Positions 1-57,014 of a DNA stretch of 64,000 nt are shown here, in pieces. The notes under the pieces were generated by a model. It was not told the origin of the DNA and did no database searches. It worked only from the letters and a program-made list of their open reading frames with translations. A program made the position numbers and the translations under genes. Each line of letters opens with the position of its first letter. Position 1 is the stretch's first letter. The stretch comes from a virus (lineage: Duplodnaviria; Caudoviricetes): the IMG/VR virus record IMGVR_UViG_3300046170_000323. One strand, given 5' to 3'.

Positions 1-4
1 GTAA

Positions 5-1857
5 ATGGCAATAAGTGCAGAAACAGAAGCGATCATTGATCGTTTAAAAGCAGAAGGTCAGTTGACTCGCAATAGCGGTAGTCACTCTATTCGCTCTGTC
101 AAAATACAACTCGAAAAGTTCGAAGGTGTATTCAATTCCATCTCTGGAAATATTGCGGAACAGACACAACTGTTGCGCAAACAGATGGGCATTCAAGAAG
201 AAGCAATCGAAAGACAACAGAGAAGAGACGACCTCAACGAGTTGCAACCACCAGTTCAACCCGAAATCGAAGAGCCTGAAACAGATACAACTATCACTGA
301 TAGTAATGGTAAGAAGTCAAAAGGTCTCATAGAAATGATTTCTGGATTTGGTGGAAGTCTTCTAGGAATGATGAAACCACTTCTTCTTGGTTCTGCAGGT
401 TTGTTTGTTGCATATAACTTTGCAAAAGGATTTATTGACGAGAAGACAGGTGGTGGATTCACTGCCTTTGAAACCTCAATGATCAAGACCTTTAAAGAAG
501 TTGACTGGTCTGCACTTGGAACTTCTTTTGTAACCTTTGCAACCAAAATTCCAGAAGCAGTTACTGCAATCACTGATTTTATCTCAAGTCCATTAGGGAT
601 GATTCTTGCAGGCGCAGGTTTGACTGCCGCCGGTATCATGTCTGGATTTGCAGGCGGTGCACTTGCAAAAGGTGTTACTGCTGGTATTATTCAAGGTGTA
701 TTAGGTGCTGGCGGTGGTGGAGGGCCCTGCTGGACAAGGTGCGCCTGCAGGGTTGTTGAACCTAAGAAAAGTATTAAAGGTTTCTGCACTGGGTGCGTTA
801 ACTGGTGCACTTGTTTTCTATGGAGAAGATATCAGTAATTGGTTACAAACTCAAGGCATGTCAGAAGGATGGGCAGATTTCGCTGTTGATAGTGCGACTG
901 CAATATCTGGAGCACTCACACTTGGTGCAATGTTTGGGGCCGCCAGGGTTGCTTGTTGGTGCAGTAGCAGGTATTGCGTATGTTGCAGGGAAGACCTTAT
1001 ACAATTGGTTTAAGAGAAACCAAGCGGATGCAGAGAAAAAACTCGCAGACCGACTTGCACTTGCAGATATTCTAGAAGGTAATCTTGGATCATTAGAAAA
1101 TTATGATGATGCTGTATTAAGAGCTGCAAGAATGAAAAGACCAAATACAGAAGGCGTAGCTGGATCTGCAAGCGCAGACAAGTTTACCAAAACAACTGAT
1201 GCAGAACAAATGGCAATCGCTGCTAACTTGTACGACGACTTTGATGAAGTGCTTCAACAGGCTGCAGAAGGGGATAAAGCTGCTGTTAATGATGTAATCA
1301 AGATGTTAGATCAAGCGACCATTCAAAGATTCATCGACAGATTTGGCCCCATGATGGCGGCACAAAGAGGTCAACTTACGATGTTGGGTGACAATCTAGG
1401 TGATGTTGAAGATGATGAGGCGTACAATAAATTCTTTAGTCAACTTGAAGAGTTGAATAAGTTTGTTGAACTGTCTGGTAACGATACGGCGATCCTAACC
1501 ATGCGCAACGAATTGCGTAATGGTATACTGAGATCGTTCCAAGGCATTACGTCTACTTCTGAAGACTTCGAATTCCTAACAGATGATCAAAAGAGAATAC
1601 TCAAAGCGCTGGAAGAAATAATGAACGGCGGGCCTGCGGCACAAAAACTGAGTTCACTGGCAGGAAGTGCTGCTACACAACAGATGTTAGCAGATGCCGC
1701 CATGGGGAATAGTGGTACAAACGTGGTGATTGGAAAAGTTGGTGGGGATACGATCCAAAATACTCAGATCACTAAAGGTGGTGCAGTAAATATTGCAGAC
1801 GTTAAATCCTACAACCAGACTGGCAATCCAATGAGTCCTATGAAACTAAGTGGTTAA
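5..1857 (+). CDS. Large Ala/Gly-rich protein with hydrophobic segments, probable baseplate hub/tape-measure (gp29-like); split by two +1 frameshifts (~727, ~940)
   Basis: ORFs 5..838, 705..1013 and 805..1857 join into one reading (GGGGG-PAGQGAP...GAMFG-PPGLLVG) if one base is removed at gggccc and one at ggggcc. Product call is by composition only. Confidence 0.45.
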
Positions 1858-2039
1858 CCACCCACATAGGTTTTATTCTTTGGACGATACCAATTTTTTT
1901 GATGGTACATCTTGGCCAAAAGTTCGTTGATAACTTGTTTTTCTTTTGGGTCTGCTGCAAACATGCGAAAACGCAGAGCAGTTTCAATCTGCTCTACGTC
2001 ACGAACGTTTAGTTTAAATTTTTCATTGGGTTTATTCAT
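1854..2039 (-). CDS. Hypothetical protein (61 aa)
   Basis: ORF packed in the minus-strand operon. Confidence 0.6.
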   Translation of the reverse strand: MNKPNEKFKLNVRDVEQIETALRFRMFAADPKEKQVINELLAKMYHQKNWYRPKNKTYVGG

Positions 2040-2044
2040 GAAAA

Positions 2045-2227
2045 TTATTTATATAGTTTTTTGATTTCCATCATACACGCTTTCGATTCCTCGTGCATAC
2101 CCATCCTTGCGAGTTCCGAAGCCGCTCTGCTGTAACCCATCATCTGGGTATACCGATCTAAGGAAGACCACAATCCCGACAACGGTGAGAAAACATAGTT
2201 TGCTACTAATGTTGTCATTAGACCCAC
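2045..2227 (-). CDS. Small hypothetical protein (60 aa)
   Basis: ORF overlapping the stop of the upstream gene. Confidence 0.6.
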   Translation of the reverse strand: MGLMTTLVANYVFSPLSGLWSSLDRYTQMMGYSRAASELARMGMHEESKACMMEIKKLYK

Positions 2228-2469
2228 CCTCTTAGATTTGTATTAACGCAGTGTTCGATTGTATCTTTTTTACGTGCGATAGAATAAATGTCGCCTCTTG
2301 AGATACCGATATCCATAAGATCTGCATCTGATAGTCTGCCGAGTGCTTTTTCAGTTTCTCGAATTGCTTTACGTTCAATTCTCCAATTTCTAAAGTCTCT
2401 GAAGGCGTTGATGATTAGTTCGATTGATCTGGTTGTATAACCATGTGCTGCTAGTATAGCTTGTGTCAT
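2218..2469 (-). CDS. DUF1127 (YjiS-like) small protein
   Basis: Signature R..L..LSDADLMDIGISRGDI; SD GGAG before ATG at 2469. Confidence 0.8.
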   Translation of the reverse strand: MTQAILAAHGYTTRSIELIINAFRDFRNWRIERKAIRETEKALGRLSDADLMDIGISRGDIYSIARKKDTIEHCVNTNLRGWV

Positions 2470-2632
2470 TTTGTTCTCCAAATGTATGATAAATGTGTGT
2501 GTTAATCCGAGCGTAGGCGATCTACATTTTACTCCTTTTCCACACATTTATTTAGTACAGAAATAGGTAAATAACCCTTACCAATTTGGAATAGGCGTTA
2601 TGCAAATTTGGAAAGTGTGACAACTTGTTCGC

Positions 2633-2660
2633 AAAAAAAAGGTCTCCGAAGAGACCTTTG
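2633..2660 (-). terminator. Intrinsic terminator
   Basis: GGTCTC-cgaa-GAGACC hairpin with an 8-T run on the minus strand. Confidence 0.75.
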
Positions 2661-2662
2661 AA

Positions 2663-2899
2663 TTATTCTTTTGTATCATCTCGTTTACTAACGAAACTGT
2701 ACATCTCTTTTGCCTTCTCCATGAGGTCTTGTACAGAATACATTTCAGTTACTTTCTGAAACTCTTCCATCTGCATCTTGCCTTGATCCATCATTTTCTC
2801 AGCGAACTGTACGTTCATATGATACTGTTGATCCATGTAGTCTTTTGCAAGTTGCAACATCTCAGAACGGATTTCGAATGGATTTTTATTAGACATCAC
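2663..2899 (-). CDS. Hypothetical protein (NKNPFEIRSEMLQLAKDY type)
   Basis: 78-aa ORF in operon context. Confidence 0.65.
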   Translation of the reverse strand: MMSNKNPFEIRSEMLQLAKDYMDQQYHMNVQFAEKMMDQGKMQMEEFQKVTEMYSVQDLMEKAKEMYSFVSKRDDTKE

Positions 2900-3102
2900 T
2901 TCACCACCTTAGCGAGCATCTCGCCTGTTGCATTAGAAAATTCATTGATTTGTTTAAAGGACGCTTTTGTAAATGCGGTTTGAGTGTCGATAAAATCATT
3001 CAAGGGTTTACTGAGTGTTTCATCTTTCACCCAAGTTGATACCCAACCTCGTTTTGCATTCTGGATTGCGTCAATCCACATATTAGACATGTATTCGTTC
3101 AT
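2896..3102 (-). CDS. Hypothetical protein (68 aa)
   Basis: SD AGGAG, ATGA overlap with the next gene. Confidence 0.65.
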   Translation of the reverse strand: MNEYMSNMWIDAIQNAKRGWVSTWVKDETLSKPLNDFIDTQTAFTKASFKQINEFSNATGEMLAKVVK

Positions 3103-3125
3103 TTTATTCTCCTGTTTGTGTGTGT

Positions 3126-3150
3126 AAAAATGGGGGGAATAAATCCCCCC
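3126..3150 (-). terminator. Intrinsic terminator after hsp20
   Basis: GGGGGGA/TCCCCCC stem followed by a T-run on the minus strand. Confidence 0.65.
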
Positions 3151-3161
3151 TGAGTCATTAT

Positions 3162-3611
3162 TTATTCTGTGAGAAGTTCTTCCTTCCCAGCAACTGAACC
3201 AATAGAGATCTTTCGAGGTTTCTTTTCCTCTGGGATCACATTTTCAAGTTCTACGTAAAGGATACCGTTTTGGTATTCAGCACCACGTACTACAATTGTA
3301 TCCGACAAAGTAAACTTTCTACGGAACTGTCGTGCACTGATTCCTCTGTGTAGATATTGCGCTTCCGACTTTTCGTCTTTCTTACCCTCTACAGTAAGTA
3401 CACCGTCCTTGACTTCAACATCAAGTTCATCTTGGTTGAATCCGGCAAGTGCCAGTTCAATGACGTAATTATCGTCATCTACTTTGCGTATATTGTAGGG
3501 TGGGTAGTTTGGTTGACTTGATCCTGTTTGATGCATACGATCTAGTACACGGTCAAACCCAATAAAAAATGGATCATTAAGTAAGTCGGCAGTCATTCTG
3601 CGAGTATTCAT
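3162..3611 (-). CDS. Small heat-shock protein (Hsp20/IbpA family)
   Basis: NYPPYNIRK, LALAGF, YLHRGISARQFRRKF, NGIL motifs. Confidence 0.95.
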   Translation of the reverse strand: MNTRRMTADLLNDPFFIGFDRVLDRMHQTGSSQPNYPPYNIRKVDDDNYVIELALAGFNQDELDVEVKDGVLTVEGKKDEKSEAQYLHRGISARQFRRKFTLSDTIVVRGAEYQNGILYVELENVIPEEKKPRKISIGSVAGKEELLTE

Positions 3612-3668
3612 TTGCTATCTCCTTTATTAAGCAAGATTGATGTTATGTACCCGATAACGGCGTACAAT
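3612..3668 (-). promoter_or_regulatory. ROSE-like RNA thermometer in the hsp20 leader
   Basis: AUCUUGCU-uaauaa-AGGAGAU: UUGCU with a bulged G pairs across the SD; a 5' hairpin UGUAC/GUACA precedes it. Confidence 0.65.
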
Positions 3669-3670
3669 GT

Positions 3671-3701
3671 TATTTATATCACAAATTGAAGGTCATGTCA
3701 A
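3671..3701 (-). promoter_or_regulatory. Overlapping sigma70-like promoter and T4 late promoter for hsp20
   Basis: TTGACA(3701-3696)-17bp-TATAAA, with TATAAATA at 3678-3671. Confidence 0.7.
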
Positions 3702-3709
3702 CCAAAAAA

Positions 3710-4111
3710 TTACTTTCTTCCTATATTATATTTTACTGTAAGATCCCATTGATCTTTTTCTTTATAAGAAATGATCTTAATGTGATTTAATGGGGCAACT
3801 GGATCCTTGGTTTTTTCTTTATCAACGATCTTGAGTAGTTCCCACTCTTCTAGTAAATTTACAATAGTGTTTCGGCGTGCTTTGTCCTCGTCTGTGAAAG
3901 TATTCTGTTTACCATCTAGTATAAACAGTTCCTTAAAATGAAGGATTGCATATCTGCCTTTTTTGTGTAGGATGTGGCAAGACTGATACAGTCTTTTTTC
4001 TTTTCGTGAAGAAATACCAATTCTTGTGAGCGTCTCTTTAATTTTTAAAAAACTATCATCAGAGGGTAATTCAATCTCGACACCAACTCCCTTAAAAATA
4101 TCTTCGTTCAT
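3710..4111 (-). CDS. regA: RegA translational repressor
   Basis: FLKIKETLTRIGI, LYQSCHILHKKGRY..HFKELF. Confidence 0.95.
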   Translation of the reverse strand: MNEDIFKGVGVEIELPSDDSFLKIKETLTRIGISSRKEKRLYQSCHILHKKGRYAILHFKELFILDGKQNTFTDEDKARRNTIVNLLEEWELLKIVDKEKTKDPVAPLNHIKIISYKEKDQWDLTVKYNIGRK

Positions 4112-4197
4112 AATACATGTTCACCTTTTTTATAATTTATTGTTATGGGTGGTGTTGATCAACATAACCAACGAAAGTATTTATCAAAACGTGTTTT

Positions 4198-4608
4198 TTA
4201 ACCACCAACAAATAACTTATCGTAAACATGTTCCATCTGGTCTTTACTTAGAACCTTGTAATATTGTTTTGCAACTGTTCTGTTACATTCATAAACCTTC
4301 TGGATGGCATCTAGATCTTCATTAGGTTCTGCCTTGTGCCACTTGGAGAACCGTTTGCGTTTGCGTAGTGATGCACGATAATAATCGAACTGTGCGCCTG
4401 CCATGTTGTCTAACATAGGCCAACGGATGTTCATCTCATTCGCATGAAGAATGGTATCTTCAAAGTAAGAGAACCCACGATTGACAACATAGGAATACGA
4501 TGAGTATTCTTTCTCTGCAAGATCTGGGTTCTCTGCCTCACGAATGATATCCTTCTTAGAGTCTGATGCAGCATTCATGAAGTCAAAGGGCGAGAACTCT
4601 TTACTCAT
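4198..4608 (-). CDS. gp62: Clamp loader small subunit (gp62)
   Basis: SPFDF, Y..Y.VNRGFSY..DT..HANEMN, RKRKRFSKW; position between gp44 and regA. Confidence 0.9.
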   Translation of the reverse strand: MSKEFSPFDFMNAASDSKKDIIREAENPDLAEKEYSSYSYVVNRGFSYFEDTILHANEMNIRWPMLDNMAGAQFDYYRASLRKRKRFSKWHKAEPNEDLDAIQKVYECNRTVAKQYYKVLSKDQMEHVYDKLFVGG

Positions 4609-4825
4609 GAAGCATGTGCTCCTCATCATCTACCATTGCATCATACTGCATCTTCTCACGTTCATACGATCCAACGAATGTCAGTTCCTCGTCATAAGAA
4701 ACTACATATCCAACTGCACGTAAGAAGTCAGTGAATGAAGTAAGAACCTCATCAAGGTCTGCATCTTCATTTAATTTCATTTCAATTGATGAACCATCAA
4801 TATTATGGGTGTGACTAAATTTCAT
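4601..4825 (-). CDS. Hypothetical protein
   Basis: ORF with SD GGAGG; LDEVLTSFTDFLRAVGY. Confidence 0.65.
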   Translation of the reverse strand: MKFSHTHNIDGSSIEMKLNEDADLDEVLTSFTDFLRAVGYVVSYDEELTFVGSYEREKMQYDAMVDDEEHMLHE

Positions 4826-4982
4826 TTTTCGCCTCCTCAATACCCTGTAAGATTAGATCAAACTCTTTTGCGCATGAAGGACAGACATCATAAGTTGCCT
4901 GTCCTTCTGCCATTTCTACAGTCATCTTGAATGACTCTTCTTTATCGAATTGTTTTACGCAGTAGAAACATTCTGTCGACAT
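4815..4982 (-). CDS. Small Zn-ribbon-like protein (55 aa, below the ORF-track cutoff)
   Basis: MSTECFYCVKQ...DVCPSCAKE: two CxxC pairs; start overlaps the gp44 stop. Confidence 0.6.
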   Translation of the reverse strand: MSTECFYCVKQFDKEESFKMTVEMAEGQATYDVCPSCAKEFDLILQGIEEAKNEI

Positions 4983-5941
4983 TACTTGTATTCACTTTCA
5001 ATCATAATTTCTGTCAAGTACGCCACCATGTTGATCTCACTATCAGAGGCGAAGTTTGCCTTGTACATGTAATCTGCAGTGGTGACTACAAATCCTGGCA
5101 TACTACGGAACTCTACACGTTCATCTGCAGCATCATAGATTGCACGAAACATCTCGTTCATATCCTGATCAGAATTACGTGCAACCCACTTGCGCATCTC
5201 AGTGAAGTTCTTAGACTTCAGATAAGAGAACAGTTCATCAACACTTTCTGCTTTCAGATTGACAAAGATACCTTCGTCGATTGAACCTGATGCAGCATAG
5301 GATTGAAGTTCGGTAAGTACACGACGAAAGTCTGGGAAGTATTTCTGTACAACCTTTGCAATGACTTTCTTGTCGTATGACACACCCTCTTGATCAAGGA
5401 TTGCAAGAACACGTTTGTAGAACGCCCCTGCGAGTGCAGGTTTCTCTTCATTGTCAATAGAGAAGTCTATCTCAGAGAGACGTGACCTCAAAGGACTAAT
5501 GATACGGTTCTTGAAGTTACAAGTAAAGATGAACCCACAATTCGAAGAGTACTCCTCAATGAAGTTACGAAGTGCAGGTTGAACATTAGTGGATGGTAGG
5601 TAGTCTGCCTCGTCAAATATAACATATTTACGTCCACCTGTCAAGCTGACTGCAGAAGCAAATGTTGAGATATCGTAACGAACGGCATCGATGTTAACGT
5701 TGAGTGATCCATTCTTTACGATGTAATCACAACCCATCTCTTCAAGCATTGCCTTTGCGACTGTAGTCTTACCTACGCCAGGCCCACCTGTCAAGAGAAG
5801 GTTTGGTACGTTCTCATCCTTGATAAATTTTTGAAAGATTTCTTTTGTTTGTTGAGGAAGAATTGTATCTTCAATCAACTGAGGACGGTATCGTTCCACC
5901 CATAATACTTCGTTTACTTTAGTAGTAAGACCTTCTTGCAT
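4982..5941 (-). CDS. gp44: Clamp loader large subunit (gp44)
   Basis: WVERYRP, Walker A GPGVGKT, DEAD, NFKNRIISPLRSR. Confidence 0.97.
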   Translation of the reverse strand: MQEGLTTKVNEVLWVERYRPQLIEDTILPQQTKEIFQKFIKDENVPNLLLTGGPGVGKTTVAKAMLEEMGCDYIVKNGSLNVNIDAVRYDISTFASAVSLTGGRKYVIFDEADYLPSTNVQPALRNFIEEYSSNCGFIFTCNFKNRIISPLRSRLSEIDFSIDNEEKPALAGAFYKRVLAILDQEGVSYDKKVIAKVVQKYFPDFRRVLTELQSYAASGSIDEGIFVNLKAESVDELFSYLKSKNFTEMRKWVARNSDQDMNEMFRAIYDAADERVEFRSMPGFVVTTADYMYKANFASDSEINMVAYLTEIMIESEYK

Positions 5942-6052
5942 ATTGCGCCACCATGTTCATATTATAAAAAAGACTTTGAGGGGCGGTCTAGAAACCCGCC
6001 CCCTCTGGGTATGTGAAACATCGTTGAGTGGTTCTACCCTTCTTGGTATGGT

Positions 6053-6322
6053 TTACTGGACTTTATCAGCCAGTGGAGCATCTGGTGGGACATCGCCTTC
6101 GACGACATCTGCCTCTGCTGTTGGGTCTGGCACAGGTGTACGTTGGTTCACGTATGCCACAATTTTATTGCGGAGAGCGCCAACTCCCGCCAGTTCCTGA
6201 CCCTCGAAACCGCCTCGTCGAGAGACCGCATCAATAATTTGAACTACAGTGGAAATGTCCTGTAGTGTAAGATCGACAGGCTGTTGTTGGCCCATCATTG
6301 CTGCTTGCTGTTGTTCGTTCAT
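6053..6322 (-). CDS. Hypothetical protein
   Basis: 89-aa ORF in operon context. Confidence 0.6.
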   Translation of the reverse strand: MNEQQQAAMMGQQQPVDLTLQDISTVVQIIDAVSRRGGFEGQELAGVGALRNKIVAYVNQRTPVPDPTAEADVVEGDVPPDAPLADKVQ

Positions 6323-6330
6323 GGTATTTT

Positions 6331-6994
6331 TTACCCCTTTTTATAAGTCGACTTAGAATCAATTGCCACAAAATAAGTGACATCGTCACCTTCAAACTTA
6401 GAGATACCTTTTGAAGCAAAGCGTAACTCTATAGTCTTGCGGCAGTAACTTAAGATTATCGGTCTTGATGATAATCTTAAACTCATCGGCAGTATCACCA
6501 ATTTCGACACCGTAGTCATCGGCCCCTTCATTAGTACTATCGATTGCTTTGAGATAACATGTGCCGTTTGAACCGACAAATGCGATCTCACTGAACTGAA
6601 GAACTCCTGCAGCCTTCAATACAGATTGCATGTCATCCCATGAGACATCGACTTCTACATCCTTAGAAGGGATTTTGACATCCTTCTCAGGTGCTGCGTG
6701 AATCATAGAAACGTCTGCGAATAGGTATTTAGTTCTGCGTTTGCCTTCAGAAATAATAAAGTATTTATCATGAAACTCCACATCGGCATCTGCATAAAGC
6801 GATAAAATCGACAAAAAACGTGATAAATCGTAGATACAGGCGTCAGATGGAATCTCATCTGGAATGGTTGCGCTAGCAATCAACGTCCGTTCGGGAGTGA
6901 TTGTCTTGAGGACATTCCCTTCCTTCATCTGGATAGACTTGTTGATTGTAGCAAAACTCTTAAGAATCGTAAGAGTGCGTTCACTGAATTTCAT
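6331..6994 (-). CDS. gp45: Sliding clamp (gp45); one +1 frameshift near 6420
   Basis: MKFSERTLTILKSFATIN, IYDLSRFL, NLKLLPQDY; C-terminus ASKGISKF...YFVAI lies in the adjacent frame. Confidence 0.92.
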
Positions 6995-44057: not shown

Positions 44058-45014
44058 ATGGCTGTGAGAAGACCTCTTTACTGGACAGGTGATGGCCTCA
44101 GGCCCATGTCCGATGCGATGATAGATGATATCGTTGATCGTGCTGTTGCGTTGTATAATAACAACCCTTCAGTCACGTTAGACGTGGTAAGTGATAATGG
44201 TAATTTACGAACGATGAATGACACACGTTTCGAAGCGGGTGATGCAACAAGAAGATCTGGTAGATATTCGACTGAAGCTGAAACTCCAGATATCGAAGAA
44301 GTTGTAATTTATAACGATAGAATTGATCAAACGGTTGCAAGTGGCACATCGTATCCTACAAACACTGACAACATTGCGTTTCCCACTTACCAAACAGGGT
44401 CTGATGTGCGAACAATGACACGTGGTGATTTTGTAGACACATTCATTAAACCTGCGATTGATAAGTTATTGACATCAACTGTTGCAGGGTATACAGTCAT
44501 TTCTGATGCTGCGACAGCACCCAACACCGTAGAAGCTGTTGACAATACTCCAATCTTTATAAACACGATTGCAGATGTTAGCTAAGTTCACGGCGGTTGG
44601 TATTCCAGAAACTAAAGATCAACCAGAAACTGTGGACTCATACAAACTTTATCGGTACAAGAATACAACACCAGCAGCGTTATCACAAAAACCTCTGAAA
44701 CTTACAAGTAGAAACTGATCCACATATCCAACAGATGTCAGATACAGAATTGAATGATCTTTTAGAAGACACTATCAGACATACAGCCTGCAAATGATAC
44801 TACAGCTGCACACAGAATTAGGTATAACATAAATGTGGTTGGTGGGACTAATCGTGGTTCACCAATGCTTGATACAAGACTTAATGGAACGTCTGCAGCA
44901 GGATATACTCAGAAACCTTTGGGGATCTATGACAACTATTACGAAACTCAGGAGTTTCCGAACGGTATTGAAACTACCATAAATACATATAACTTAACTA
45001 TTACAAAATCTTAG
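44058..45014 (+). CDS. Putative virion structural protein A (frameshifted after ~44580)
   Basis: MAVRRPLYW, DTRFEAG, ...YETQEFPNG...TINTYNLTITKS*; Thr/Asp/Ala-rich. Confidence 0.6.
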
Positions 45015-45029
45015 AGGGAAATTTTTAAA

Positions 45030-46010
45030 ATGGCAGTGCGAGCACCCTTATACTGGGATGGAACCGAAGTCCAAGAAATGTCAATTGCGCAGGTTACTGC
45101 GATTTGTGAACGCATGAACAATGCGTACTCTGGTAACGAGACCGTAACGCTCTCTGTTGTTGCATCCGCAGGTACATTAGCTGCGATGGATGATACGAGA
45201 TATCAAGCAGGTACTTTCACAACAGGTACAACTGCATACGCAACCGAAGCAGCGACAGCAGATATCTCCACTGATCACCACGACATTTGATAAAATCTCT
45301 CAGTCAAAATCTAGTCCCGCGTCATATCCAGTAGACAGTCAACAAAAGTTATCCTTGTTATTGGGACACGGCGACTGGTGAGATCAGAGCGATGACTCAA
45401 CAGGACATGATCGATACTTTTGTTGATCAGGCGACTGATTTACTTGCGGCAGGGAATACAGAGTCAGACACCTCAAAGAAGGCAGGTTCTTATACAATTA
45501 GTACAAGTAACTCACTTGCAGGCGCAACTCTTGTAGATGCAGCCCCCAATATATACAGATACACGTGCAGATGCAGATGTGTATACATCTGGTGGTATTC
45601 CAGAAGCGCAAGACCAACCAGAAGACGTAAACAACTACTATCTACACCAGTGGAATGGTGATGCAGCTGCAGGCGCAGATGTGCCACTCATGATAAATAT
45701 AACTGGTGGCGTAACAGACTTACAAACATACTCAGATACGGACTGGGACTTTATCCTATCGGAATACATTCGATACGCAACTGAGAATGAAACTGGTCAA
45801 CAAATCAACTTTGAAATATACGAAGTTGGCAGTGAACCCGCTGGTGCAAACCTCTGTGGAACTGCAATTGTTGATACAACGCTTGACGGATCGTCTGCCA
45901 GCGGGTATACTACACGTCTAGTAAATGCAAACGACTATAGAACACAGGAATTCCCGAATGGGGTTCCAACAACAATTAAATCATATGGTTTATATGTCAC
46001 TAAAAGCTAA
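45030..46010 (+). CDS. Putative virion structural protein B, paralogue of A (several frameshifts)
   Basis: MAVRAPLYW, DTRYQAG, ...YRTQEFPNG...TIKSYGLYVTKS*. Confidence 0.6.
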
Positions 46011-47266: not shown

Positions 47267-48682
47267 ATGAAAATTAAAACTGAAAAAGAAAAACCAGATC
47301 TTATCGCTCTGAAAGATCATGATGCTGATGCGTATGCGTCTACTCCTCATGATTACTTCAAGAAGGGTGAACCTGATCTGAACTATATGTTAGATGAAGT
47401 CATCAAAGATAAAGGTGATTTCTTCTGCTCCCAGCCTTGGGTTCATATGTACATGCCAACATATGGATTCCAGCATATTTGTTGTAATACAAGTATGAGT
47501 GTGAAGAAACATATTTCCCAAGCAACCTTTGAAGAACTTTACAACGAACCAGAGTTCACCAAACTTCGTGAAGAGATGGTTGGTGGCCACAAGGATCGTG
47601 AAAGAACTCTGAAGACGTGTGTTAGATGTATTCAAACAGAACATCGTGGGTTTCCTTCCCTGCGAGAGTCCTATAATAGATCTGCAAACAGAAACACCCA
47701 AACAAAAGACGAGATGGGTAAACTCGTTAGTAAAGTCAAAGAAACTGGCGATGGGAATATTGGGCTACCAGAAAAACTTCACACGGTTGAACTCAAAGTG
47801 TGGGGAAACTATTGTAACCTTCAGTGTCTAATGTGTTCTGTAGAGGACTCGTCTTCTGTTGCAGAAGAACAGATGGCACTGGGTGAGATAGATGCAAAGG
47901 GTATTAAAGAACGTGTAACATTGCGTACAGGTATTGAACCACCCTTTACCCCACCTTTGATTCGATATCAAGACAACTACATCGATGAAGATCAGTACTG
48001 GGGCATTATTGATCGTGCAGTACGTATCAAACTTATCGGTGGAGAAACTTTCCTTCAAAAACAAAATATTCAATTGTTAGAACATCTTGTCAAAACAGGC
48101 AAGGCGAAGGATAAAGAACTTATCATCTTCACAAACAACTATGGATATCCACGTATGGAATACGTGCGAGACCTTCTACGCAACTTCAAATCAATTGCGT
48201 ACAAATGTTCTATGGAGTTATGGGGTGAGAAGAATGATTACATTCGTTACCCATCAAAGTGGGATGAAGTACATCGTAACATGAAAATGATGGCGAAGAT
48301 CCCTCAGTTACAAGTGTTGCCAACTTGCACACTAAATCCAATAACAATAGGATATGTACATGAGATCATCGATGGGGCGGCACAGTTCTCAGATGTCATG
48401 CCAAACTTCTCATCTGTATCAAGACCAAAATGGTTTACTGCACACTGTATTCCAGATGATGTCGTGGATTTCTATCTGGACAGATATTATAGTCTACCGT
48501 ACGAGATGATTCACCTTTGCACAAAGGCGATTGAAACTCTGGAACAACGTGATTTCAAAGAAGACAAGTACAAGAAGATGATCAACCATATCACACGTAG
48601 AGATAAACATCGTAATGATAACATCTTGAATTTCTTTCCAGAGTGGAAAAACCATTTCAAGGATCCTTATTATGATAATTGA
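47267..48682 (+). CDS. Radical SAM protein with an N-terminal SPASM/twitch domain
   Basis: C..PWVH......ICC, C..C, CNLQCLMC, GGETF, YIRYPSKW. Confidence 0.9.
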   Translation: MKIKTEKEKPDLIALKDHDADAYASTPHDYFKKGEPDLNYMLDEVIKDKGDFFCSQPWVHMYMPTYGFQHICCNTSMSVKKHISQATFEELYNEPEFTKLREEMVGGHKDRERTLKTCVRCIQTEHRGFPSLRESYNRSANRNTQTKDEMGKLVSKVKETGDGNIGLPEKLHTVELKVWGNYCNLQCLMCSVEDSSSVAEEQMALGEIDAKGIKERVTLRTGIEPPFTPPLIRYQDNYIDEDQYWGIIDRAVRIKLIGGETFLQKQNIQLLEHLVKTGKAKDKELIIFTNNYGYPRMEYVRDLLRNFKSIAYKCSMELWGEKNDYIRYPSKWDEVHRNMKMMAKIPQLQVLPTCTLNPITIGYVHEIIDGAAQFSDVMPNFSSVSRPKWFTAHCIPDDVVDFYLDRYYSLPYEMIHLCTKAIETLEQRDFKEDKYKKMINHITRRDKHRNDNILNFFPEWKNHFKDPYYDN

Positions 48683-49715
48683 TAATCAGTTCAATTTAAA
48701 AAAGATGGACTCTGAGATTACCAATAGATGTAATGCTGCATGTACATTGTGTCCACGTACGGGCACATATCCAGGCGGGTTGGGTAAAGAAGTTTATAAC
48801 TCAGGCCCATTGGATATATCTCTGGATGTGATAGAAGAATGTCTTGGTTGGCCAATTAAGAAGTGGCAGTATTGTGGTAACTACGGTGATCCGATGGCCC
48901 ATCCAAAGGTGTTTGACATTGCAGAGATGGTATCCAAATCTACAGTAGATGCACAACAGTTCGACACAAATGGTTCTATGAGATCCACTCAATTCTGGAA
49001 AGAGTTGGGTGGACTTCCTAATAATATGATAGTGAACTTTGCACTTGATGGACTGAGTGATACAAACCACATCTACAGAACCAACACCAACTTCGAAAAG
49101 ATCATTGAAAATGCAAAAGCATTCATGGCAGGTGGTGGTATTGCACGTTGGATCTTTATTGTTTTCAACCACAATGAACACCAAGTAGAAGAAGCCAGAG
49201 ACATGGCAAGGAAACTTGGGTTTGATAACTTTGCTTTCAAAAAGACTTCTAGACAACTAGAAAAAGGTTCGACAACTGCAAAGAAAGAATATAAGAAGTC
49301 GTCAAAGTCTGAGACAGTCACCAAATCAGTAACTGCAACTAAGAGACCAGAGTTCCAAGCGGATACGATCAAGAGAGGTGTTGTTGAACATGTTGTCTCT
49401 TGTAAGGCACTTGGACAGAAGAAAATGTATGTGACTCCAAAGGGACAATTGATTCCCTGTTGTCACGTTCACCAAGATCTCTTTAAGAACGAATACAATC
49501 CAGAATTCCGTAGTAAGAACGATGAGATGAACTTCACAACTTGGCTGGATGAAAACAACGTCAAGTACGATCTCAATAAGTATACCATATTTGAAGTGAT
49601 GAAGTCTTACAGAGAAAACCTTGACTCGATTGAAGACAGGTGGTTTAGAAGATCTTTACGTTCTTGTAATAAAAAGTGTGGGAGCAATCTAAGAAATGAA
49701 GTCGTTAATTATTGA
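48672..49715 (+). CDS. Radical SAM protein with a C-terminal SPASM/twitch domain
   Basis: CNAACTLC, GNYGDP, TNGS, FALDGL, C...KMYVTPKGQLIPCCH, C..KC. Confidence 0.92.
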   Translation: MIIDNQFNLKKMDSEITNRCNAACTLCPRTGTYPGGLGKEVYNSGPLDISLDVIEECLGWPIKKWQYCGNYGDPMAHPKVFDIAEMVSKSTVDAQQFDTNGSMRSTQFWKELGGLPNNMIVNFALDGLSDTNHIYRTNTNFEKIIENAKAFMAGGGIARWIFIVFNHNEHQVEEARDMARKLGFDNFAFKKTSRQLEKGSTTAKKEYKKSSKSETVTKSVTATKRPEFQADTIKRGVVEHVVSCKALGQKKMYVTPKGQLIPCCHVHQDLFKNEYNPEFRSKNDEMNFTTWLDENNVKYDLNKYTIFEVMKSYRENLDSIEDRWFRRSLRSCNKKCGSNLRNEVVNY

Positions 49716-49809
49716 CTATTATTATAATATCAAAACATATTTTGTGGGTTGGTATTATAAAGTATCTAAGAAAGAAACTGATGATGAATTTATTTACGAG
49801 GATGATTAA
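49696..49809 (+). CDS. Small Tyr-rich peptide (37 aa)
   Basis: MKSLIIDYYYNIKTYFVGWYYKVSKKETDDEFIYEDD*; fills the gap exactly, and its TAA overlaps the next ATG (TAATG). Confidence 0.6.
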   Translation: MKSLIIDYYYNIKTYFVGWYYKVSKKETDDEFIYEDD

Positions 49810-50526
49810 TGAGTCTTTTTGATCTGATCGAAGAAAAACGTAGACACGTTAGAGAATATATGACAAAGGTGCCTCCAAGGGAAATTGTTGAGGACTGTCT
49901 ATGGAAAGCGTGGAAAACATCTCCTTCTAAAAACAACTTTATGGCATATCGTGTGGACGTTTATGGGCCTGATAAACACGAAGAGAAAGAGATTATCTGG
50001 AACCTTGTTCTGAAGAATCACATTCGTGCAGAAGAACGTGCACAACGAGATGGTAGAATAGAGTTTACTCAGAAGGGTGAACCAAATCCTTTCTACGAAC
50101 ATGTAAAACTCAATCCCTATTTGTTTGTTCTCCACAGTAGAGTGGCAAAGAAAGCGAATAGGTTCTACGCACATCAAATAGAAAGAGGTCACTTTGCAGA
50201 TCAGATGTATCCAGATCTAGTCGAAAGACTGGTGGATTCTGTGGCAGTCGACTGTGGACTATTCTTATCTAACCTTACCGCTGCACTTCTAGGAACACGA
50301 CATAGACGTTTCTTACAATTCTTGTTTCCTCAGAGATCCCGCTATATGGCGTTCTGCCGGACTTGATCATGTTGAGTATCGTCCTATCGTTATGATGAGT
50401 GCAGGGTACGCTGCAAAATATAGACACGAGTGCCTCACTGAATGGAACATGGATGGATGGGATGTTAAACCAGACATCGAAGAAGTTATAAAATGGGTGG
50501 GCGAAGATGTTACTAACACTGGGTGA
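49809..50526 (+). CDS. Nitroreductase-fold protein; +1 frameshift near 50300
   Basis: RRHVREY, AWKTSPSKNNF, VAVDCGLF..NL...LLEHDIDVSYNSC, MSAGY. Confidence 0.75.
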
Positions 50527-51319
50527 TAGTTTTACCGTAAAGAGATATGACGGTGATAAACCTTGGTCTGAACAACTTGCAGAGAAACTGGGTATGGAAT
50601 TACTCAATGTATCTCACGAAGGCGAGTCCAACTCTTATATGTTCCGTAATGCGATATGGGCACTGACAACACAAGACGTTGAACTATGTGTCATATCTCT
50701 GACAAACTGGGACAGGTTTGAACTTCCGTACTCAGACTATGGTCTAAAGGGTTCTGGAATGTACGACAGAACAAAAACATTTAAACCAAAAAACTGTTGG
50801 GATGAAGATAATCCCTATTCAAAGCTTTACATTGCATACTATTCTATGTTATACTACGTAGATACAACCTCTTCGTATATCATTGCGATTGACAACTTGT
50901 GTAAGGCAAAGGGTATTCCTCTGATCTTTACACAACCTCTGTTGCCTTTCAACGTGAGAATCAAGGCGGTTAAAACTGGAGAACTGGACTTTTTGTTTTC
51001 AAAGAATATGAATGCTATGGGTGAAGACTACATTGAAAATATTTCGTTGTTCCGTCATGTTGATAAATCACTATTCTGCATGTTCAAACCAACTGCGCAA
51101 ACAATACTCTTTGGTAAGGAAGATGGTATATCTGAAAAGACTTACGACAACATGTTCAGTTTCTTCACAAGGAACCATCCAGAATATGTGATGGGTTATC
51201 ATAATAAATACATTTATAAAGGTGGACAGGCTTTTAGAAAATCATGGGATGGTCATCCTAATTTGAAAGGTCACCAAATGATATCTGATATTGTTTATGA
51301 TCACTATATGAATATGTAA
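50507..51319 (+). CDS. SGNH/GDSL-family protein (acyltransferase/esterase)
   Basis: LGDSFT, GESN, DGHPNLKGH. Confidence 0.8.
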   Translation: MLLTLGDSFTVKRYDGDKPWSEQLAEKLGMELLNVSHEGESNSYMFRNAIWALTTQDVELCVISLTNWDRFELPYSDYGLKGSGMYDRTKTFKPKNCWDEDNPYSKLYIAYYSMLYYVDTTSSYIIAIDNLCKAKGIPLIFTQPLLPFNVRIKAVKTGELDFLFSKNMNAMGEDYIENISLFRHVDKSLFCMFKPTAQTILFGKEDGISEKTYDNMFSFFTRNHPEYVMGYHNKYIYKGGQAFRKSWDGHPNLKGHQMISDIVYDHYMNM

Positions 51320-51330
51320 AGGAGAACTAC

Positions 51331-52035
51331 ATGTCTGTTGCAACAACGTATGCAGATCGAAATCAAACACGTTACTTTGATCAAAACGAAGTTCCTGATA
51401 AAGAACTAATTGAAAAGTGTCTACTCAAGACTCATGAAATTGTCATGTCAAAACAGAACTTGATGCCGTATCAGTGTCATATTTTTGGCCCTGATGATTA
51501 TGATATCAAAAGACGGTTCTATGAACTGGCAAGTACGGTAGAGTACGCTGATCCTGAGAAGAGACAGTTCTACCGAATGGAGAGATTAGAGAAACATGAA
51601 CGTTTCTTTGATAAACAAAAAAGATTCCCGAATGGTAACAGTCAATTGTTTGCGCCGTGGGTTCTTGTATTCTCACCACGTAAACCAAAACCAAACAAAC
51701 TAGTTCAAGACTATCTTGAAGGTCAACACGAGATGAACTATGAGGACATCAAAAACTATGACAGTGGTGCATCCAAGATGGAGATTGGTATGTTCGCTGC
51801 GTTGTTGGGTGGTGTATGTGTAGATGAGGGTCTGAATGTTAGTTACACTGGGTGTATCAACTCACGTGCATTGGTCGAAGAGTTTACATGGTGTAAGTCA
51901 CAACCTGCAGTGTCAGTAAGTATTGGGTATCCCCATACTGAACTTAATGATCGTTACCTTTATAATAAAGTATTCTTCAAAAACAAAGGTGAAGATAAAC
52001 CTAAGCCGGAAGAAATGTTTCACTGGATGGATTAA
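51331..52035 (+). CDS. Nitroreductase-fold protein
   Basis: RNQTRYF, SKQNLMPY, EIGMFA..L...CVDEGLNVSYTGC, SIGY. Confidence 0.72.
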   Translation: MSVATTYADRNQTRYFDQNEVPDKELIEKCLLKTHEIVMSKQNLMPYQCHIFGPDDYDIKRRFYELASTVEYADPEKRQFYRMERLEKHERFFDKQKRFPNGNSQLFAPWVLVFSPRKPKPNKLVQDYLEGQHEMNYEDIKNYDSGASKMEIGMFAALLGGVCVDEGLNVSYTGCINSRALVEEFTWCKSQPAVSVSIGYPHTELNDRYLYNKVFFKNKGEDKPKPEEMFHWMD

Positions 52036-52037
52036 AA

Positions 52038-53375
52038 ATGTTTGATGTGGTAACTGGAATCTCAGAAGGATTCCATGACGCCTGTAAGACTATTATCAAA
52101 GATGGTAAGATTGTCTATGCAGGTCATGCGGAAAGATATTCTCGCATAAAGAATGATAAACACCTACACCCTGATATGCCTGAGACAGAAGGTGTAACTG
52201 TATTCTATGAAAAACCTTTCCTAAAAAATACCAGAAGATTATATGCAGGTCAGTCTTGGAAGAAACGTGGTAAGTATGACTTCACGATTCCCCATCACTG
52301 GTCACATGCGTCTGCAGCTTATTACACTCGTCCCTTTGCTTTAAAGGAACCAGTCTGCGTTGTTATTGATGCGATTGGTGAGTGGGACACTGCATCTATC
52401 TGGTGGAGAAAGAAAAAGGTTTGGAGTATGAAGTACCCTACATCACTGGGACTTTTCTACTCTGCGATAACACGTCACATTGGACTTAAACCAAATGAAG
52501 ACGAGTTTATCACAATGTGTCTCGCAGCGATGGGTGACAGAAACAAATATGACTTCGATCCCTATCTGTACTATCATAAGGGATATGACTTTGGTAAGGG
52601 TCGTAAAGAAGATATCGCCGCATCCGCCCAAAGAATACTTGAAGACGAAATCCTGAAGATCATGGAGAAAGCACGTTCTTACTCTCCTTATCTTTGTTAT
52701 GGTGGTGGGGTTGCACTAAACTGTGTTGCGAACACAAAGATTAAAAGAATGTTTGATGATATGTGGATCTTCCCAAACCCATCAGATGGTGGCAGTTCTT
52801 TGGGTGCAGCGATATCTGCACTAGAACTTGGCCCGTATAGAACGTTGCAGATTGATAACATGTTCCTTGGTCATGAAATAAAAGGCGAATTAGATGTTGC
52901 CAAAGTGGTACAAAATCTGGTACAATATAAAACATGTGGAGTAGCAAATGGTAAAGCAGAATTTGGCCCTCGTGCTCTTGGTAATCGTTCTCTCTTGGCC
53001 GATCCTAGAGTGGACAATATCAAGGACGTGGTTAATAAGGTTAAAAATAGACAAGGTTATAGACCGTTTTCGCCAGCGATACTAGAAGAATATGCTTCTG
53101 AGTATTTTACTGGCCCTATGAATGAGTACATGCAATATGTCTCTCATGCAGAACATGATTACCAAGGGGTGATGCATGTTGATGGTACGTCTAGAGTCCA
53201 AGTCGTTAAAGACGATGGAAGCAATATGCGTAGAGTCCTAGAAGCGTGGTACGAAAAAACTAAATGCCCTATGTTACTAAACACATCACTTAACATAAAG
53301 GGTAAACCTATCGTGAATAATGAACGAGATGCAAAAGAATTTGAAAAGGTAACAAAGGTTCCAGTAGTAACATGA
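52038..53375 (+). CDS. Carbamoyltransferase (NodU/CmcH/TobZ family)
   Basis: GISEGFHDA, HH.SHA, DAIGE, GGVALNC, EFGPRALGNRS, RPFSP, HVDGTSRVQ, LLNTSLN. Confidence 0.95.
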   Translation: MFDVVTGISEGFHDACKTIIKDGKIVYAGHAERYSRIKNDKHLHPDMPETEGVTVFYEKPFLKNTRRLYAGQSWKKRGKYDFTIPHHWSHASAAYYTRPFALKEPVCVVIDAIGEWDTASIWWRKKKVWSMKYPTSLGLFYSAITRHIGLKPNEDEFITMCLAAMGDRNKYDFDPYLYYHKGYDFGKGRKEDIAASAQRILEDEILKIMEKARSYSPYLCYGGGVALNCVANTKIKRMFDDMWIFPNPSDGGSSLGAAISALELGPYRTLQIDNMFLGHEIKGELDVAKVVQNLVQYKTCGVANGKAEFGPRALGNRSLLADPRVDNIKDVVNKVKNRQGYRPFSPAILEEYASEYFTGPMNEYMQYVSHAEHDYQGVMHVDGTSRVQVVKDDGSNMRRVLEAWYEKTKCPMLLNTSLNIKGKPIVNNERDAKEFEKVTKVPVVT

Positions 53376-55354: not shown

Positions 55355-57014
55355 ATGAAAATTCAGATGGGATCATTCAGTATCCCAAGAAGTTTGCCTT
55401 ACATCCCCTATAGTTCTGCAGTCTTGGAATCTTATGTTAAGAACAGAGACGATCCACCTGCCTGCGAATTTTTAGAACCCATCTACAAATACGATGACAT
55501 ACCAGATCCAGAATGTGAAATTTTGGGTCTGACTTGTTATGTCTGGTCGCAAGATCACGTCGATCAAATCGCCAAGGATCACAAAGAGAAATATCCGAAC
55601 TGTACAATCATGTATGGTGGCCCGAACATTCCTGTATCTCCCACTGAGTGGTTGAAGTACGAGGGAGAACGTCCTTGGGTGGATGTATTTGTCGCAGGTT
55701 CTGGTGAAGAGATCTTTGTGCAGTTGTTGAAAGAGTACCCAAACTTTACTCAGAAGTGGTATAAACTGGAGAAAGATGTAAAGCGTTACACATACGAAAC
55801 TCCAACACCTTACGTGGATGGCACGTTAGATAAGTTCCTCAAACGGAAAGATGAAAAGTTTGTTGCAGTATTAGAAACCAATCGTGGTTGTCCTTTCAAG
55901 TGTGCGTATTGCGACTGGGGAGATGCGACTGGTGGTAAGGTTTCTAAGTATGATGGAGATGTCAACTACAAGACACTCGACTTGATCATGGATTCAGAAG
56001 CGATGACAGGTATTAAGATCATCGATGCAAACTGGGGAATGTACGAACGTGACCTAGACATGACGAAAGTACATGAGAGATCACAAGAGAGAAGATGTGT
56101 TTGTCAGTTTGTGTGGTACTGCAAAGAACAGTATCAAATATGTACCAGAGATTTCTAAGATCTTCTTCCAAGATAACTTTGCTGCAGAGAGTGGTCACTG
56201 GACTCCTCTGAAGTTAGGTATCCAATCTTGGTCAGAAAAGACACTGGCATATAATGATCGTTCAAACATCAAAACATCTCAGTTGGAATATCTACTTAAT
56301 TACTATAAAGACAATGACATTCCTTACCACAGTGAATTGATCCTTGGTCTGCCTGGCGAAACACCAGAGTCGTGGTTGTACACGTTAGACAAAGATCATG
56401 GACACGGTGTGGAGACTCAAGCGTTCCATGCATTAGAAGCGGTTCCTAATATGCCTCTCTTGTTAGACCATAGAGAAGAGTATGAACTGGAGTTGCATTC
56501 CGCATATGCCCTGAGAGAGAATATCTATTCTGTTCATCCTAAGTTTTATCATAGGAATAGAGACTTGGTGTATGATGACTTCAACGAAAACGTTGATAAA
56601 ACAAAGATTGTTAGAAAAGATCTTATCAATTCATGTTTTTCGTTTTCACATGAAGAACTGTTGACCATGTATGACTATACTTGGTGGATGAATACCTTTA
56701 ACAACACGAAACTATTACCAGACATAAAGAAACCGAGCGAAGACATTCTACGGTTCTTTGATAACTTGGACAAGATGCCTTTCTGGAAATCACGAGTCGA
56801 AGAACATCGTGCGCACTGGAGAGAAGCAATGATCGAAGGAAAGATCCTTAGTGCTGGGTCTTTGCGTTACTGGTTCCACACAATGTTTCGTGCAGACGAA
56901 CTAATGTATGTTGGTGAAAACTTTGAACAGGCACAAGACGAAATGGGAAGAAAGTTCCGTCCGTTCAAAAAATCTTTGAGAGTTTACGATTATGAATATA
57001 CCATTCCTCACTAA
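55355..57014 (+). CDS. B12-binding-type radical SAM protein; +1 frameshift near 56068
   Basis: GLTCYVWS, GGPN, GSGEE, ETNRGCPFKCAYCDWG, DANWG, ELILGLPGET. Confidence 0.88.

Follow-up and report, generated by a model that had tools for sequence, protein, structure and literature searches.

What does a gene of only 37 codons do in a marine phage, and to which of its neighbours does it belong? The question is raised by a stretch of 64,000 nucleotides from the viral record IMGVR_UViG_3300046170_000323 (IMG/VR), here called the window, in which a small open reading frame (ORF) lies at 49696..49809 on the + strand, directly after two genes for radical S-adenosylmethionine (SAM) proteins and before a nitroreductase-like gene. 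An earlier reading of the letters alone (the sequence-only reading) had proposed that its product is the precursor of a ribosomally made, post-translationally modified peptide (RiPP), cross-linked on its aromatic residues by the adjacent radical SAM enzymes. It is apparent from the relatives of this locus that the ORF is a genuine conserved protein-coding gene of uncultured marine T4-like phages. Its partner is very probably not a radical SAM enzyme but an SGNH-fold enzyme encoded at 50507-51319, for which the microprotein may act as a carrier of acyl groups.

The small gene and its neighbours across marine phages

The ORF begins with ATG and encodes MKSLIIDYYYNIKTYFVGWYYKVSKKETDDEFIYEDD (37 amino acids, aa, and a stop), which has seven Tyr, one Trp and two Phe residues and an acidic end; the coordinates, translation, Tyr-rich composition and acidic tail reported earlier were all reproduced letter for letter. 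It is tightly packed, with its 5' end sharing 20 nt with the 3' end of the radical SAM gene 48672-49715 and its TAA stop sharing an A with the ATG of the next gene (49807-49811), which is the TAATG coupling already described. The purine-rich site said to lie upstream is also present, as GGGAG at 49680-49684, 11 nt before the ATG, although it falls within the Cys-Gly-Ser codons of the upstream gene, so that its conservation cannot count as separate evidence of a ribosome-binding site.

At least 16 sequence variants of this unnamed family of 30-38 aa viral peptides occur across 11 lineages of marine viral contigs. The small ORF is kept in relatives whose radical SAM protein is 79%, 59%, 53% and 52% identical to that of the window, examples being MKSALSDLYFKIKTYIVGYYWKVTKKKDNTEYIYEDD, MMLSKLTDLYFKIKTYVVSYYYRITKKKDNTDFIYEDD, MLKKLKLKLKNLYVRFFSRDKTQPDFIYEDD and MNIFKLLYWKIKLYIQKQSQDFIYEKDTDDR. 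Its pairwise ratio of non-synonymous to synonymous polymorphism (pN/pS) is 0.19-0.42, with synonymous sites near saturation, against 0.17-0.39 for the flanking enzymes, and the other reading frames of the stretch are closed in relatives. The last codons of the gene have a second use, since GAG-GAT forms the GAGGA ribosome-binding site of the downstream gene. Across lineages the codons of the tail vary synonymously (TTT/TTC, also TAT; ATT/ATC/ATA; TAC/TAT; GAG/GAA), and therefore it is the protein that is under selection, beyond any constraint from the overlapping site. A profile of 11 variants recovered nine clusters of called microproteins from a 5.8-billion-protein collection, all of them unnamed and all metagenomic. 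An RNA-library contig covers 49647-49869, which is weak support for transcription because carry-over of DNA is possible; the RNA-library contigs of run X16 leave 49540-49633 and other parts uncovered, and holes between contigs prove nothing.

Pfam, NCBIfam and PHROGs gave no match for the microprotein, a feature search of the ESM Atlas gave no usable match, a word-based search with one 42-aa frame gave none, and neither did a megablast of the region against phages. A tblastn match of the microprotein in Vibrio phage PWH3a-P1 (E = 7) was treated as chance. It falls at the C-terminus of an unannotated frame of 341 aa that immediately precedes the gene for the beta subunit of ribonucleotide reductase, and to judge from position and sequence that frame is probably the alpha subunit. 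A match to a DNA pattern (L014) was likewise set aside as an unrelated 95-aa lipoprotein-like ORF with a YIYEDD end. Both the microprotein family and its SGNH partner are thus unnamed, and were seen here only in uncultured marine viral contigs.

Which gene the microprotein travels with was tabulated by tblastn over 51 loci. Those found without reference to the peptide comprised seven viral loci reached through an SGNH profile, others reached through representatives, and 20 metagenomic loci. In all 11 lineages that carry the microprotein the SGNH gene adjoins it, and in 10 it lies directly downstream; in the lineage of the window the insertion of a nitroreductase paralogue has put one gene between the two. 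In closer relatives the gene 3' of the small ORF is a homologue of 50507-51319 (starting MLLTxGDSF) and not a nitroreductase. The linkage holds across SGNH proteins that are only 28-66% identical, and in the SGNH-based search all seven viral loci had the small ORF directly upstream with a TAATG or TGATG overlap. In four of these seven (L020-23), and also in L042 and L044, the pair stands alone between a gp41-like helicase gene and ThyX, and no gene for a tailoring enzyme lies within 3-5 kb; one contig with the stand-alone pair, Ga0181380_1000001, is 150 kb long. A degenerate DNA pattern (tail plus TRATG) led to two cyanophage-like contigs (L015/16) with the order glycosyltransferase-like gene, small ORF, SGNH gene and carbamoyltransferase, and no radical SAM gene nearby.

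Contigs were also examined for 3 of the 18 strong SGNH representatives in a 1.84-billion-protein library. Among the representative contigs, the peptide lies immediately upstream in L026-28 and ahead of a second SGNH-like gene in L025, and L024 is without it. The SGNH protein of L024 (P0123) has no upstream peptide but itself ends in ...KINEPEDFIYK, so that the FIY motif can instead be fused to the C-terminus of the SGNH protein. No N-terminal fusion of peptide and SGNH protein was found, all 18 strong representatives starting at residue 1 to 4.

It follows from the 51 loci that the microprotein is, with high probability, the partner of the SGNH enzyme rather than of the radical SAM enzymes. 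The co-occurrence expected of a radical SAM substrate fails both ways: peptide and SGNH gene occur without a radical SAM gene within the flanks in at least five lineages (L015/16, L020-23, L025-28, L042, L044), and radical SAM loci without an SGNH gene, in three lineages (L003, L004/5, L050/51), have no peptide. In L012 a PP-loop gene lies between the radical SAM gene and the peptide, which is joined to the SGNH gene by TGATG. The search that the sequence-only reading had suggested, for small ORFs with an FIY(E/K) tail near radical SAM genes, hence recovered the conserved small gene, the synteny and the FIY(E) tail, but not the radical SAM link.

Two further ideas about the pair were tried and dropped. 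Fusion of the two products by frameshifting or read-through was rejected, as the nitroreductase-like gene intervenes in the window and a 24-nt spacer separates peptide and SGNH gene in L031. In L021 a P-loop kinase and a cytidylyltransferase-like protein (1601-2536) are encoded two genes upstream of the stand-alone pair, the kinase having an APS_kinase Pfam match of 22.7 bits against a cut-off of 21.1 and a stronger match to AAA_18. This weak match, along with the acidic flank of the peptide, had brought tyrosine sulfation into consideration, and the idea was given up as no sulfotransferase is linked to the pair.

The FIYE tail and its probable SGNH partner

The residues that are invariant in the 16 variants are Lys13, Ile33, Tyr34, Glu35 and Asp37, with Phe32 present in at least 90% (Phe or Tyr being nearly invariant there). 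The conserved part is therefore the C-terminal D-F-I-Y-E with the acidic end, and not the Tyr-rich middle, which keeps only a general basic and aromatic character, with aromatic positions varying among variants and a semi-conserved block L-[YW]-[YF]-x-[IL]-K-[TS]. In the window the C-terminal hexapeptide F32-I33-Y34-E35-D36-D37 is encoded at 49789..49806 (+), with the TAC codon of Tyr34 at 49795-49797. In most variants the equivalent of Tyr34 is three residues from the C-terminus. Amongst the 1449 stop-to-stop frames of at least 25 aa in the window, FIY occurs within the final eight residues of the microprotein alone.

AlphaFold2, run on the family alignment, predicts an alpha-helix over residues 2-27 (49699..49776, + strand), with a predicted local distance difference test score (pLDDT) of 83-89 by block, followed by an unstructured acidic tail. 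The predicted helix is basic and aromatic, with a charge of +3 to +7 across the family, and the charge over the final ten residues is -2 to -6. Averaged over 19 residues, the Kyte-Doolittle hydropathy reaches at best 0.18 here and -0.68 to 0.53 in the family, versus 1.59 in DltX of Bacillus thuringiensis, and Lys and Arg residues fall inside the helix. Judged by its composition, the helix is not hydrophobic enough to span a membrane and the product would be soluble.

The constant partner of the microprotein, encoded at 50507..51319 (+), is a protein of 270 aa that starts MLLTLGDSF and has its catalytic Ser at residue 8. Ser8 (within G-D/C-S), Gly39, Asp248 and His250 are invariant in its family, and Asn67 of block III is found in most members, so that blocks I, II, III and V of the SGNH superfamily are represented together with a flavodoxin-like fold. 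The AlphaFold2 model has a pLDDT of 86.4 and matches only SGNH/GDSL structures, among them TesA (Z 12.6 over 155 residues), PatB (Z 11.0) and CgnD (Z 10.6), with about 100 residues inserted relative to TesA. The protein begins at the catalytic strand and therefore has no signal peptide. Its nearest ESM Atlas clusters are 98-100% viral. It has no Pfam match, three different queries retrieved no homologue from 50,697 deposited phage genomes, in which the peptide family was likewise not found, and a pattern scan of limited sensitivity found neither it nor the peptide family in the species genomes of GTDB. Some SGNH members carry second Tyr-containing, acidic-aromatic tails at their own C-termini, such as ...NLDEYYGK, ...DDYYNRDS and ...LDEYYKRSHYER; members with tails of their own are L015 636-1532, L016 1503-2387, L021 4001-4924, P0122, P0126, P0128 and P0135. 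In the L021 lineage the SGNH motif is G-C-S and not G-D-S.

A conserved Tyr in a short tail, encoded with an SGNH protein, recalls the acyl-tyrosine shuttles of bacterial envelopes, which to our knowledge have been established only since 2023 and only for membrane MBOAT-SGNH systems. DltX is a membrane-located microprotein that serves, with the SGNH protein DltD, the D-alanylation of teichoic acids, the invariant Tyr of its C-terminal FXYXXF motif bringing D-Ala to the Ser of DltD (PMC12148441). In a similar manner the C-terminal FIYANF of PatA, acetylated on its Tyr, is the donor for PatB, and O-acetyl-Tyr alone is also a donor (PMC12148441). The DltX of B. thuringiensis ends in TFIYNEF (PMC5541007), and the tail NQAKFIYNEF of Lactobacillus plantarum DltX binds DltD with a Kd of 2.4 uM and is placed in the catalytic pocket by an AlphaFold3 model (PMC13653941).

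By analogy with these systems, the phage microprotein may be a soluble counterpart of the DltX/PatA-type shuttles with Tyr34 as acyl carrier for the SGNH enzyme, a reading to which a probability of about 40% is given. The FIYE tail would dock in the active site of the SGNH protein, the hydroxyl of Tyr34 would carry an acyl group as an ester, and Ser8 would take up that group or deliver it. Docking and the ester are proposed because FIYEDD places F-I-Y as the tails of DltX and PatA do, and because FIY so placed is confined to this one frame of the window. The pair could in this manner acylate or de-acylate a sugar or metabolite made by the surrounding glycosyltransferases, carbamoyltransferase, oxygenases and radical SAM enzymes, with a transfer that would be cytoplasmic and would do without a membrane MBOAT. 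The more specific proposition, that phages encode a membrane-free acyl carrier whose tyrosyl ester on the FIYE tail is handed to a cytoplasmic SGNH transferase, is more doubtful.

A number of points weigh against an acyl-tyrosine shuttle. The phage helix is basic and aromatic rather than membrane-spanning, Asp or Glu takes the place of the last Phe of FXYXXF in all variants, tails of 4 to 10 residues occur with Tyr 1 to 7 residues away from the C-terminus, and neither signal nor anchor is present on the SGNH protein, which makes for a cytoplasmic system. An hhalign comparison aligned DFIYE with the TFIYN of B. thuringiensis DltX, but with an E-value of 0.17 and a probability of 0.4%. The DltX family PF12459 gave no match for nine peptides at E <=10, nor in the near-identical viral record G001; the PDB sequence set holds no DltX chain. 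As neither a profile match nor a transmembrane helix was found when looked for, the microprotein is not classed as a member of the DltX family. On the side of the enzyme, block V reads D248-x-H250 instead of D-x-x-H, the fold match to PatB is no better than those to generic esterases, and a subclade of the SGNH protein (L036-41, L037) is without the peptide. No MBOAT or AT3 protein (PF03062, PF01757) was matched in the records G001-G005, which are 8-63% complete, and DltA and DltC were not found; a loader is therefore missing there, although an enzyme of the host may serve, and a cytoplasmic system has no evident need of a shuttle.

In many lineages the pair of peptide and SGNH genes is flanked by PP-loop ATPases with an SGGADS motif, some of which are duplicated or carry a fused glycosyltransferase-like domain (L012 5044-5670; L019 2800-3516 and 4701-6116; L024 792-1514; L026 1528-2912). 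Their C-terminus is QueC-like and Cys-rich and ends ...CKECxWCxEKKWAFGxYDGG. They are candidate adenylating, and perhaps loading, enzymes, and are absent near the pair in the lineage of the window.

Competing explanations

An alternative, unlikely as a whole but the best placed of those considered, takes crocagin as its model. [quoted passage not shown] The helix of the phage microprotein would then be a leader and the C-terminal FIYE(D)n a core or scaffold, which the enzymes of the cluster would hydroxylate, carbamoylate or glycosylate and which the SGNH protein would release as a peptidase, cleaving as CgnD does. The crocagin precursor CgnA has 21 aa with a 3-residue C-terminal core, and its pathway employs a dioxygenase (CgnC), an esterase-type (SGNH) hydrolase that removes the leader (CgnD) and a carbamoyltransferase (CgnI) (PMC10070186). 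Counterparts of this equipment are indeed present, as CgnD is among the fold matches of the SGNH protein, TauD-type and AspH-type oxygenases are encoded in the window cluster, and a carbamoyltransferase gene lies near the pair in 8 of the 11 lineages, immediately 3' of the SGNH gene in L015/16; the fusion in P0123 also counts in favour. However, a short precursor, an SGNH-type hydrolase and a carbamoyltransferase are found together in those eight lineages and not in the stand-alone pair between helicase and ThyX, where tailoring enzymes are wanting within 3-5 kb. The CgnD match is no better than those to generic SGNH esterases, the tail after Tyr is of variable length, which means that no defined C-terminal product is conserved, and the remaining cluster looks like one for sugar tailoring. 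At the sequence level, a phmmer search of four unassigned ORFs against PDB sequences did not detect a CgnB/CgnE-like protein. If the microprotein does have a RiPP role, this pattern is more likely than cross-linking by radical SAM enzymes.

It is also conceivable, at somewhat lower odds, that no chemistry takes place on the peptide and that it is a non-covalent partner, its tail filling or completing the active site of the SGNH enzyme so as to inhibit it, activate it or set its specificity, while translational coupling fixes the stoichiometry. Such an arrangement needs only two components, which fits both the stand-alone pair and the intramolecular version in P0123, and a small upstream gene with a TGATG or TAATG overlap is what would be expected of it. 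On the SGNH protein Arg70 is invariant and Arg13 nearly so, both beside catalytic blocks, and these residues could bind the acidic tail. Against this, an invariant, hydroxyl-bearing Tyr within F-I-Y is more specific than an acidic plug requires, and we know of no precedent for such a regulator of SGNH enzymes.

The reading from which the locus was first approached, that the peptide is a substrate of the two adjacent radical SAM enzymes and is cross-linked on its aromatic residues, now appears very improbable. It is true that in the window, as in four related lineages, the microprotein gene adjoins and overlaps a radical SAM gene, that the second radical SAM protein weakly resembles SPASM-type maturases such as ScmF at scores below threshold, and that the microprotein is rich in aromatic residues. 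Yet apart from the failure of co-occurrence (L003-5 and L050/51 on the one side, SGNH loci without radical SAM genes on the other), the aromatic positions of the helix vary, and only Tyr34 is conserved in position among the candidate residues for a cross-link. Pfam gave no matches for RiPP recognition element (RRE)/PqqD (PF05402) or SPASM (PF13186), with the reservation that not all maturases have an RRE and that C-terminal Cys motifs do exist in the second protein, and NF033640, the family of the first, is not a known peptide maturase family. One viral record (L003, IMGVR_UViG_2823573081_000015, 1-6331) has at least five radical SAM paralogues in tandem, the N-twitch kind alternating with a 350-aa type, and neither a small ORF of the FIY kind nor an SGNH gene, which suggests a substrate other than a peptide for these radical SAM pairs.

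Lastly, it is scarcely credible that the ORF is a mere coupling leader or chance frame with a functionless product in an AT-rich spacer that holds the ribosome-binding site of the next gene, for although that GAGGA site could partly shape the acidic end, the amino acids are conserved amid synonymous change (including F-I-Y outside the site, and with E-S-D-D-D and E-R-D-D-E differing in their bases), the pN/pS resembles that of the enzymes, the motif is kept before the nitroreductase-like gene in the window, before the 24-nt spacer in L031 and as a protein fusion in L024, and promoter-like sites in the stretch are fewer than in shuffles (11 versus 18.2), neither promoter nor terminator explaining it.

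The phage, its tailoring cluster and known systems

The window is that of a T4-like myophage, as it encodes a gp43-type polymerase, clamp loader, SbcC-like nuclease and helicase, and it also has four tRNA genes. IMG/VR has a 99% identical record, and there is a metagenome contig of 211.5 kb (Ga0098045_1000009). At least 13 studies from 2017-2025 include seawater, marine and viral metagenome runs in which the stretch 48600-51400 is nearly whole (83-95% of sampled words), and therefore the phage is widespread; one metatranscriptomic library contains 47% of the words of this stretch.

As to the neighbours named by the sequence-only reading, the two radical SAM genes and the nitroreductase-like gene are what it took them to be, and only the SPASM Pfam domain was not detected. 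The first radical SAM gene (47267..48682, +) encodes an N-terminal-twitch protein (NF033640 N_Twi_rSAM, 243.9 bits against a cut-off of 170) and the second (48672..49715, +) a 347-aa protein with C-terminal Cys motifs (Pfam Radical_SAM, 32.2 bits). The nitroreductase-like gene NTR1 (49809..50526, +) scored 21.6 bits over 49809-50366, below the 23.5-bit cut-off. It is a paralogue of 51331-52035 and sits between the microprotein and SGNH genes only in the lineage of the window. In the window NTR1 is broken by an extra base near 50291, leaving 185 aa with the remainder in another frame to 50526. This base is missing from the near-identical L002, L029 and L030 and from contigs of X1 (DNA) and X16 (RNA library), in which the intact protein of 238 aa overlaps the SGNH start, so that it is likely to be an assembly or sequencing error, or else a rare variant.

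Further downstream, a carbamoyltransferase of the NodU/CmcH type is encoded at 52038..53375 (+), and the rest of the cluster, with glycosyltransferases, an epimerase or short-chain dehydrogenase/reductase and a B12 radical SAM enzyme, looks like sugar tailoring. The last of these, a B12-binding enzyme similar to CysS and TokK at 55355-57014, is present as two ORFs overlapping by 86 nt, with the B12-binding domain in 55355-56158 and the radical SAM remainder in 56073-57014, which may be another frameshift. Upstream, the interval 44058-46010 contains three to four paralogous ORFs in tandem that start MAVR(R/A)PLYW.G.. and have similar ends (...TYNLTITKS and ...SYGLYVTKS), the second copy seemingly split across frames (45030-45290, 45392-45661, 45537-46010).

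Were the microprotein indeed an acyl-tyrosine shuttle, this chemistry would be more general, extending beyond MBOAT systems and beyond bacteria, and marine T4-like phages would own an acylation module for a glycan or metabolite of their own making. A microprotein family without a name would in that case be defined as well, and the function of the large unexplained tailoring clusters in abundant marine myophages would become easier to approach. Even if the shuttle fails, the candidate pairing is corrected, with the microprotein assigned to the SGNH protein rather than to the radical SAM enzymes. In the literature searched, no paper was found that combines SGNH, microprotein and phage.

Set beside known systems, the SGNH partner resembles viral SGNH/GDSL proteins (DUF6071, Lipase_GDSL) in that its structural neighbours are virus-only clusters, some with these Pfam families, and differs from them in its want of a Pfam match, its D-x-H block V and its insert relative to TesA. 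With the radical SAM/SPASM RiPPs (three-residue cyclophanes, pyrroloquinoline quinone, mycofactocin) the locus shares a short aromatic peptide beside radical SAM genes, and a Tyr conserved near the C-terminus of the peptide is also a feature of PqqA and MftA; the differences are that peptide and radical SAM genes fail to co-occur among relatives, that an RRE was not detected and that aromatic residues other than Tyr34 vary in position. Shared with crocagin are a peptide of very small size whose functional C-terminal segment contains Ile-Tyr, and the neighbourhood of a hydrolase of the SGNH fold, of a carbamoyltransferase and of 2-oxoglutarate oxygenases, whereas the phages have no detected CgnB/CgnE homologue, vary in the acidic residues after Tyr, can have the pair without tailoring genes and otherwise encode mostly sugar-tailoring enzymes around it. 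Compared with DltX and PatA, the carriers are marine T4-like phages and not bacteria, and the fused form has the motif on the SGNH protein and not on the loader. What the phage system has in common with them is a microprotein of fewer than 50 aa made of one helix and a short flexible C-terminal tail, a tail that starts with F-I-Y and holds an invariant Tyr (FIYNEF in DltX, FIYANF in PatA, FIYEDD here), a gene encoded together with that of an SGNH-fold protein with a Ser nucleophile, and a motif that exists both as a free microprotein and fused to its partner enzyme.

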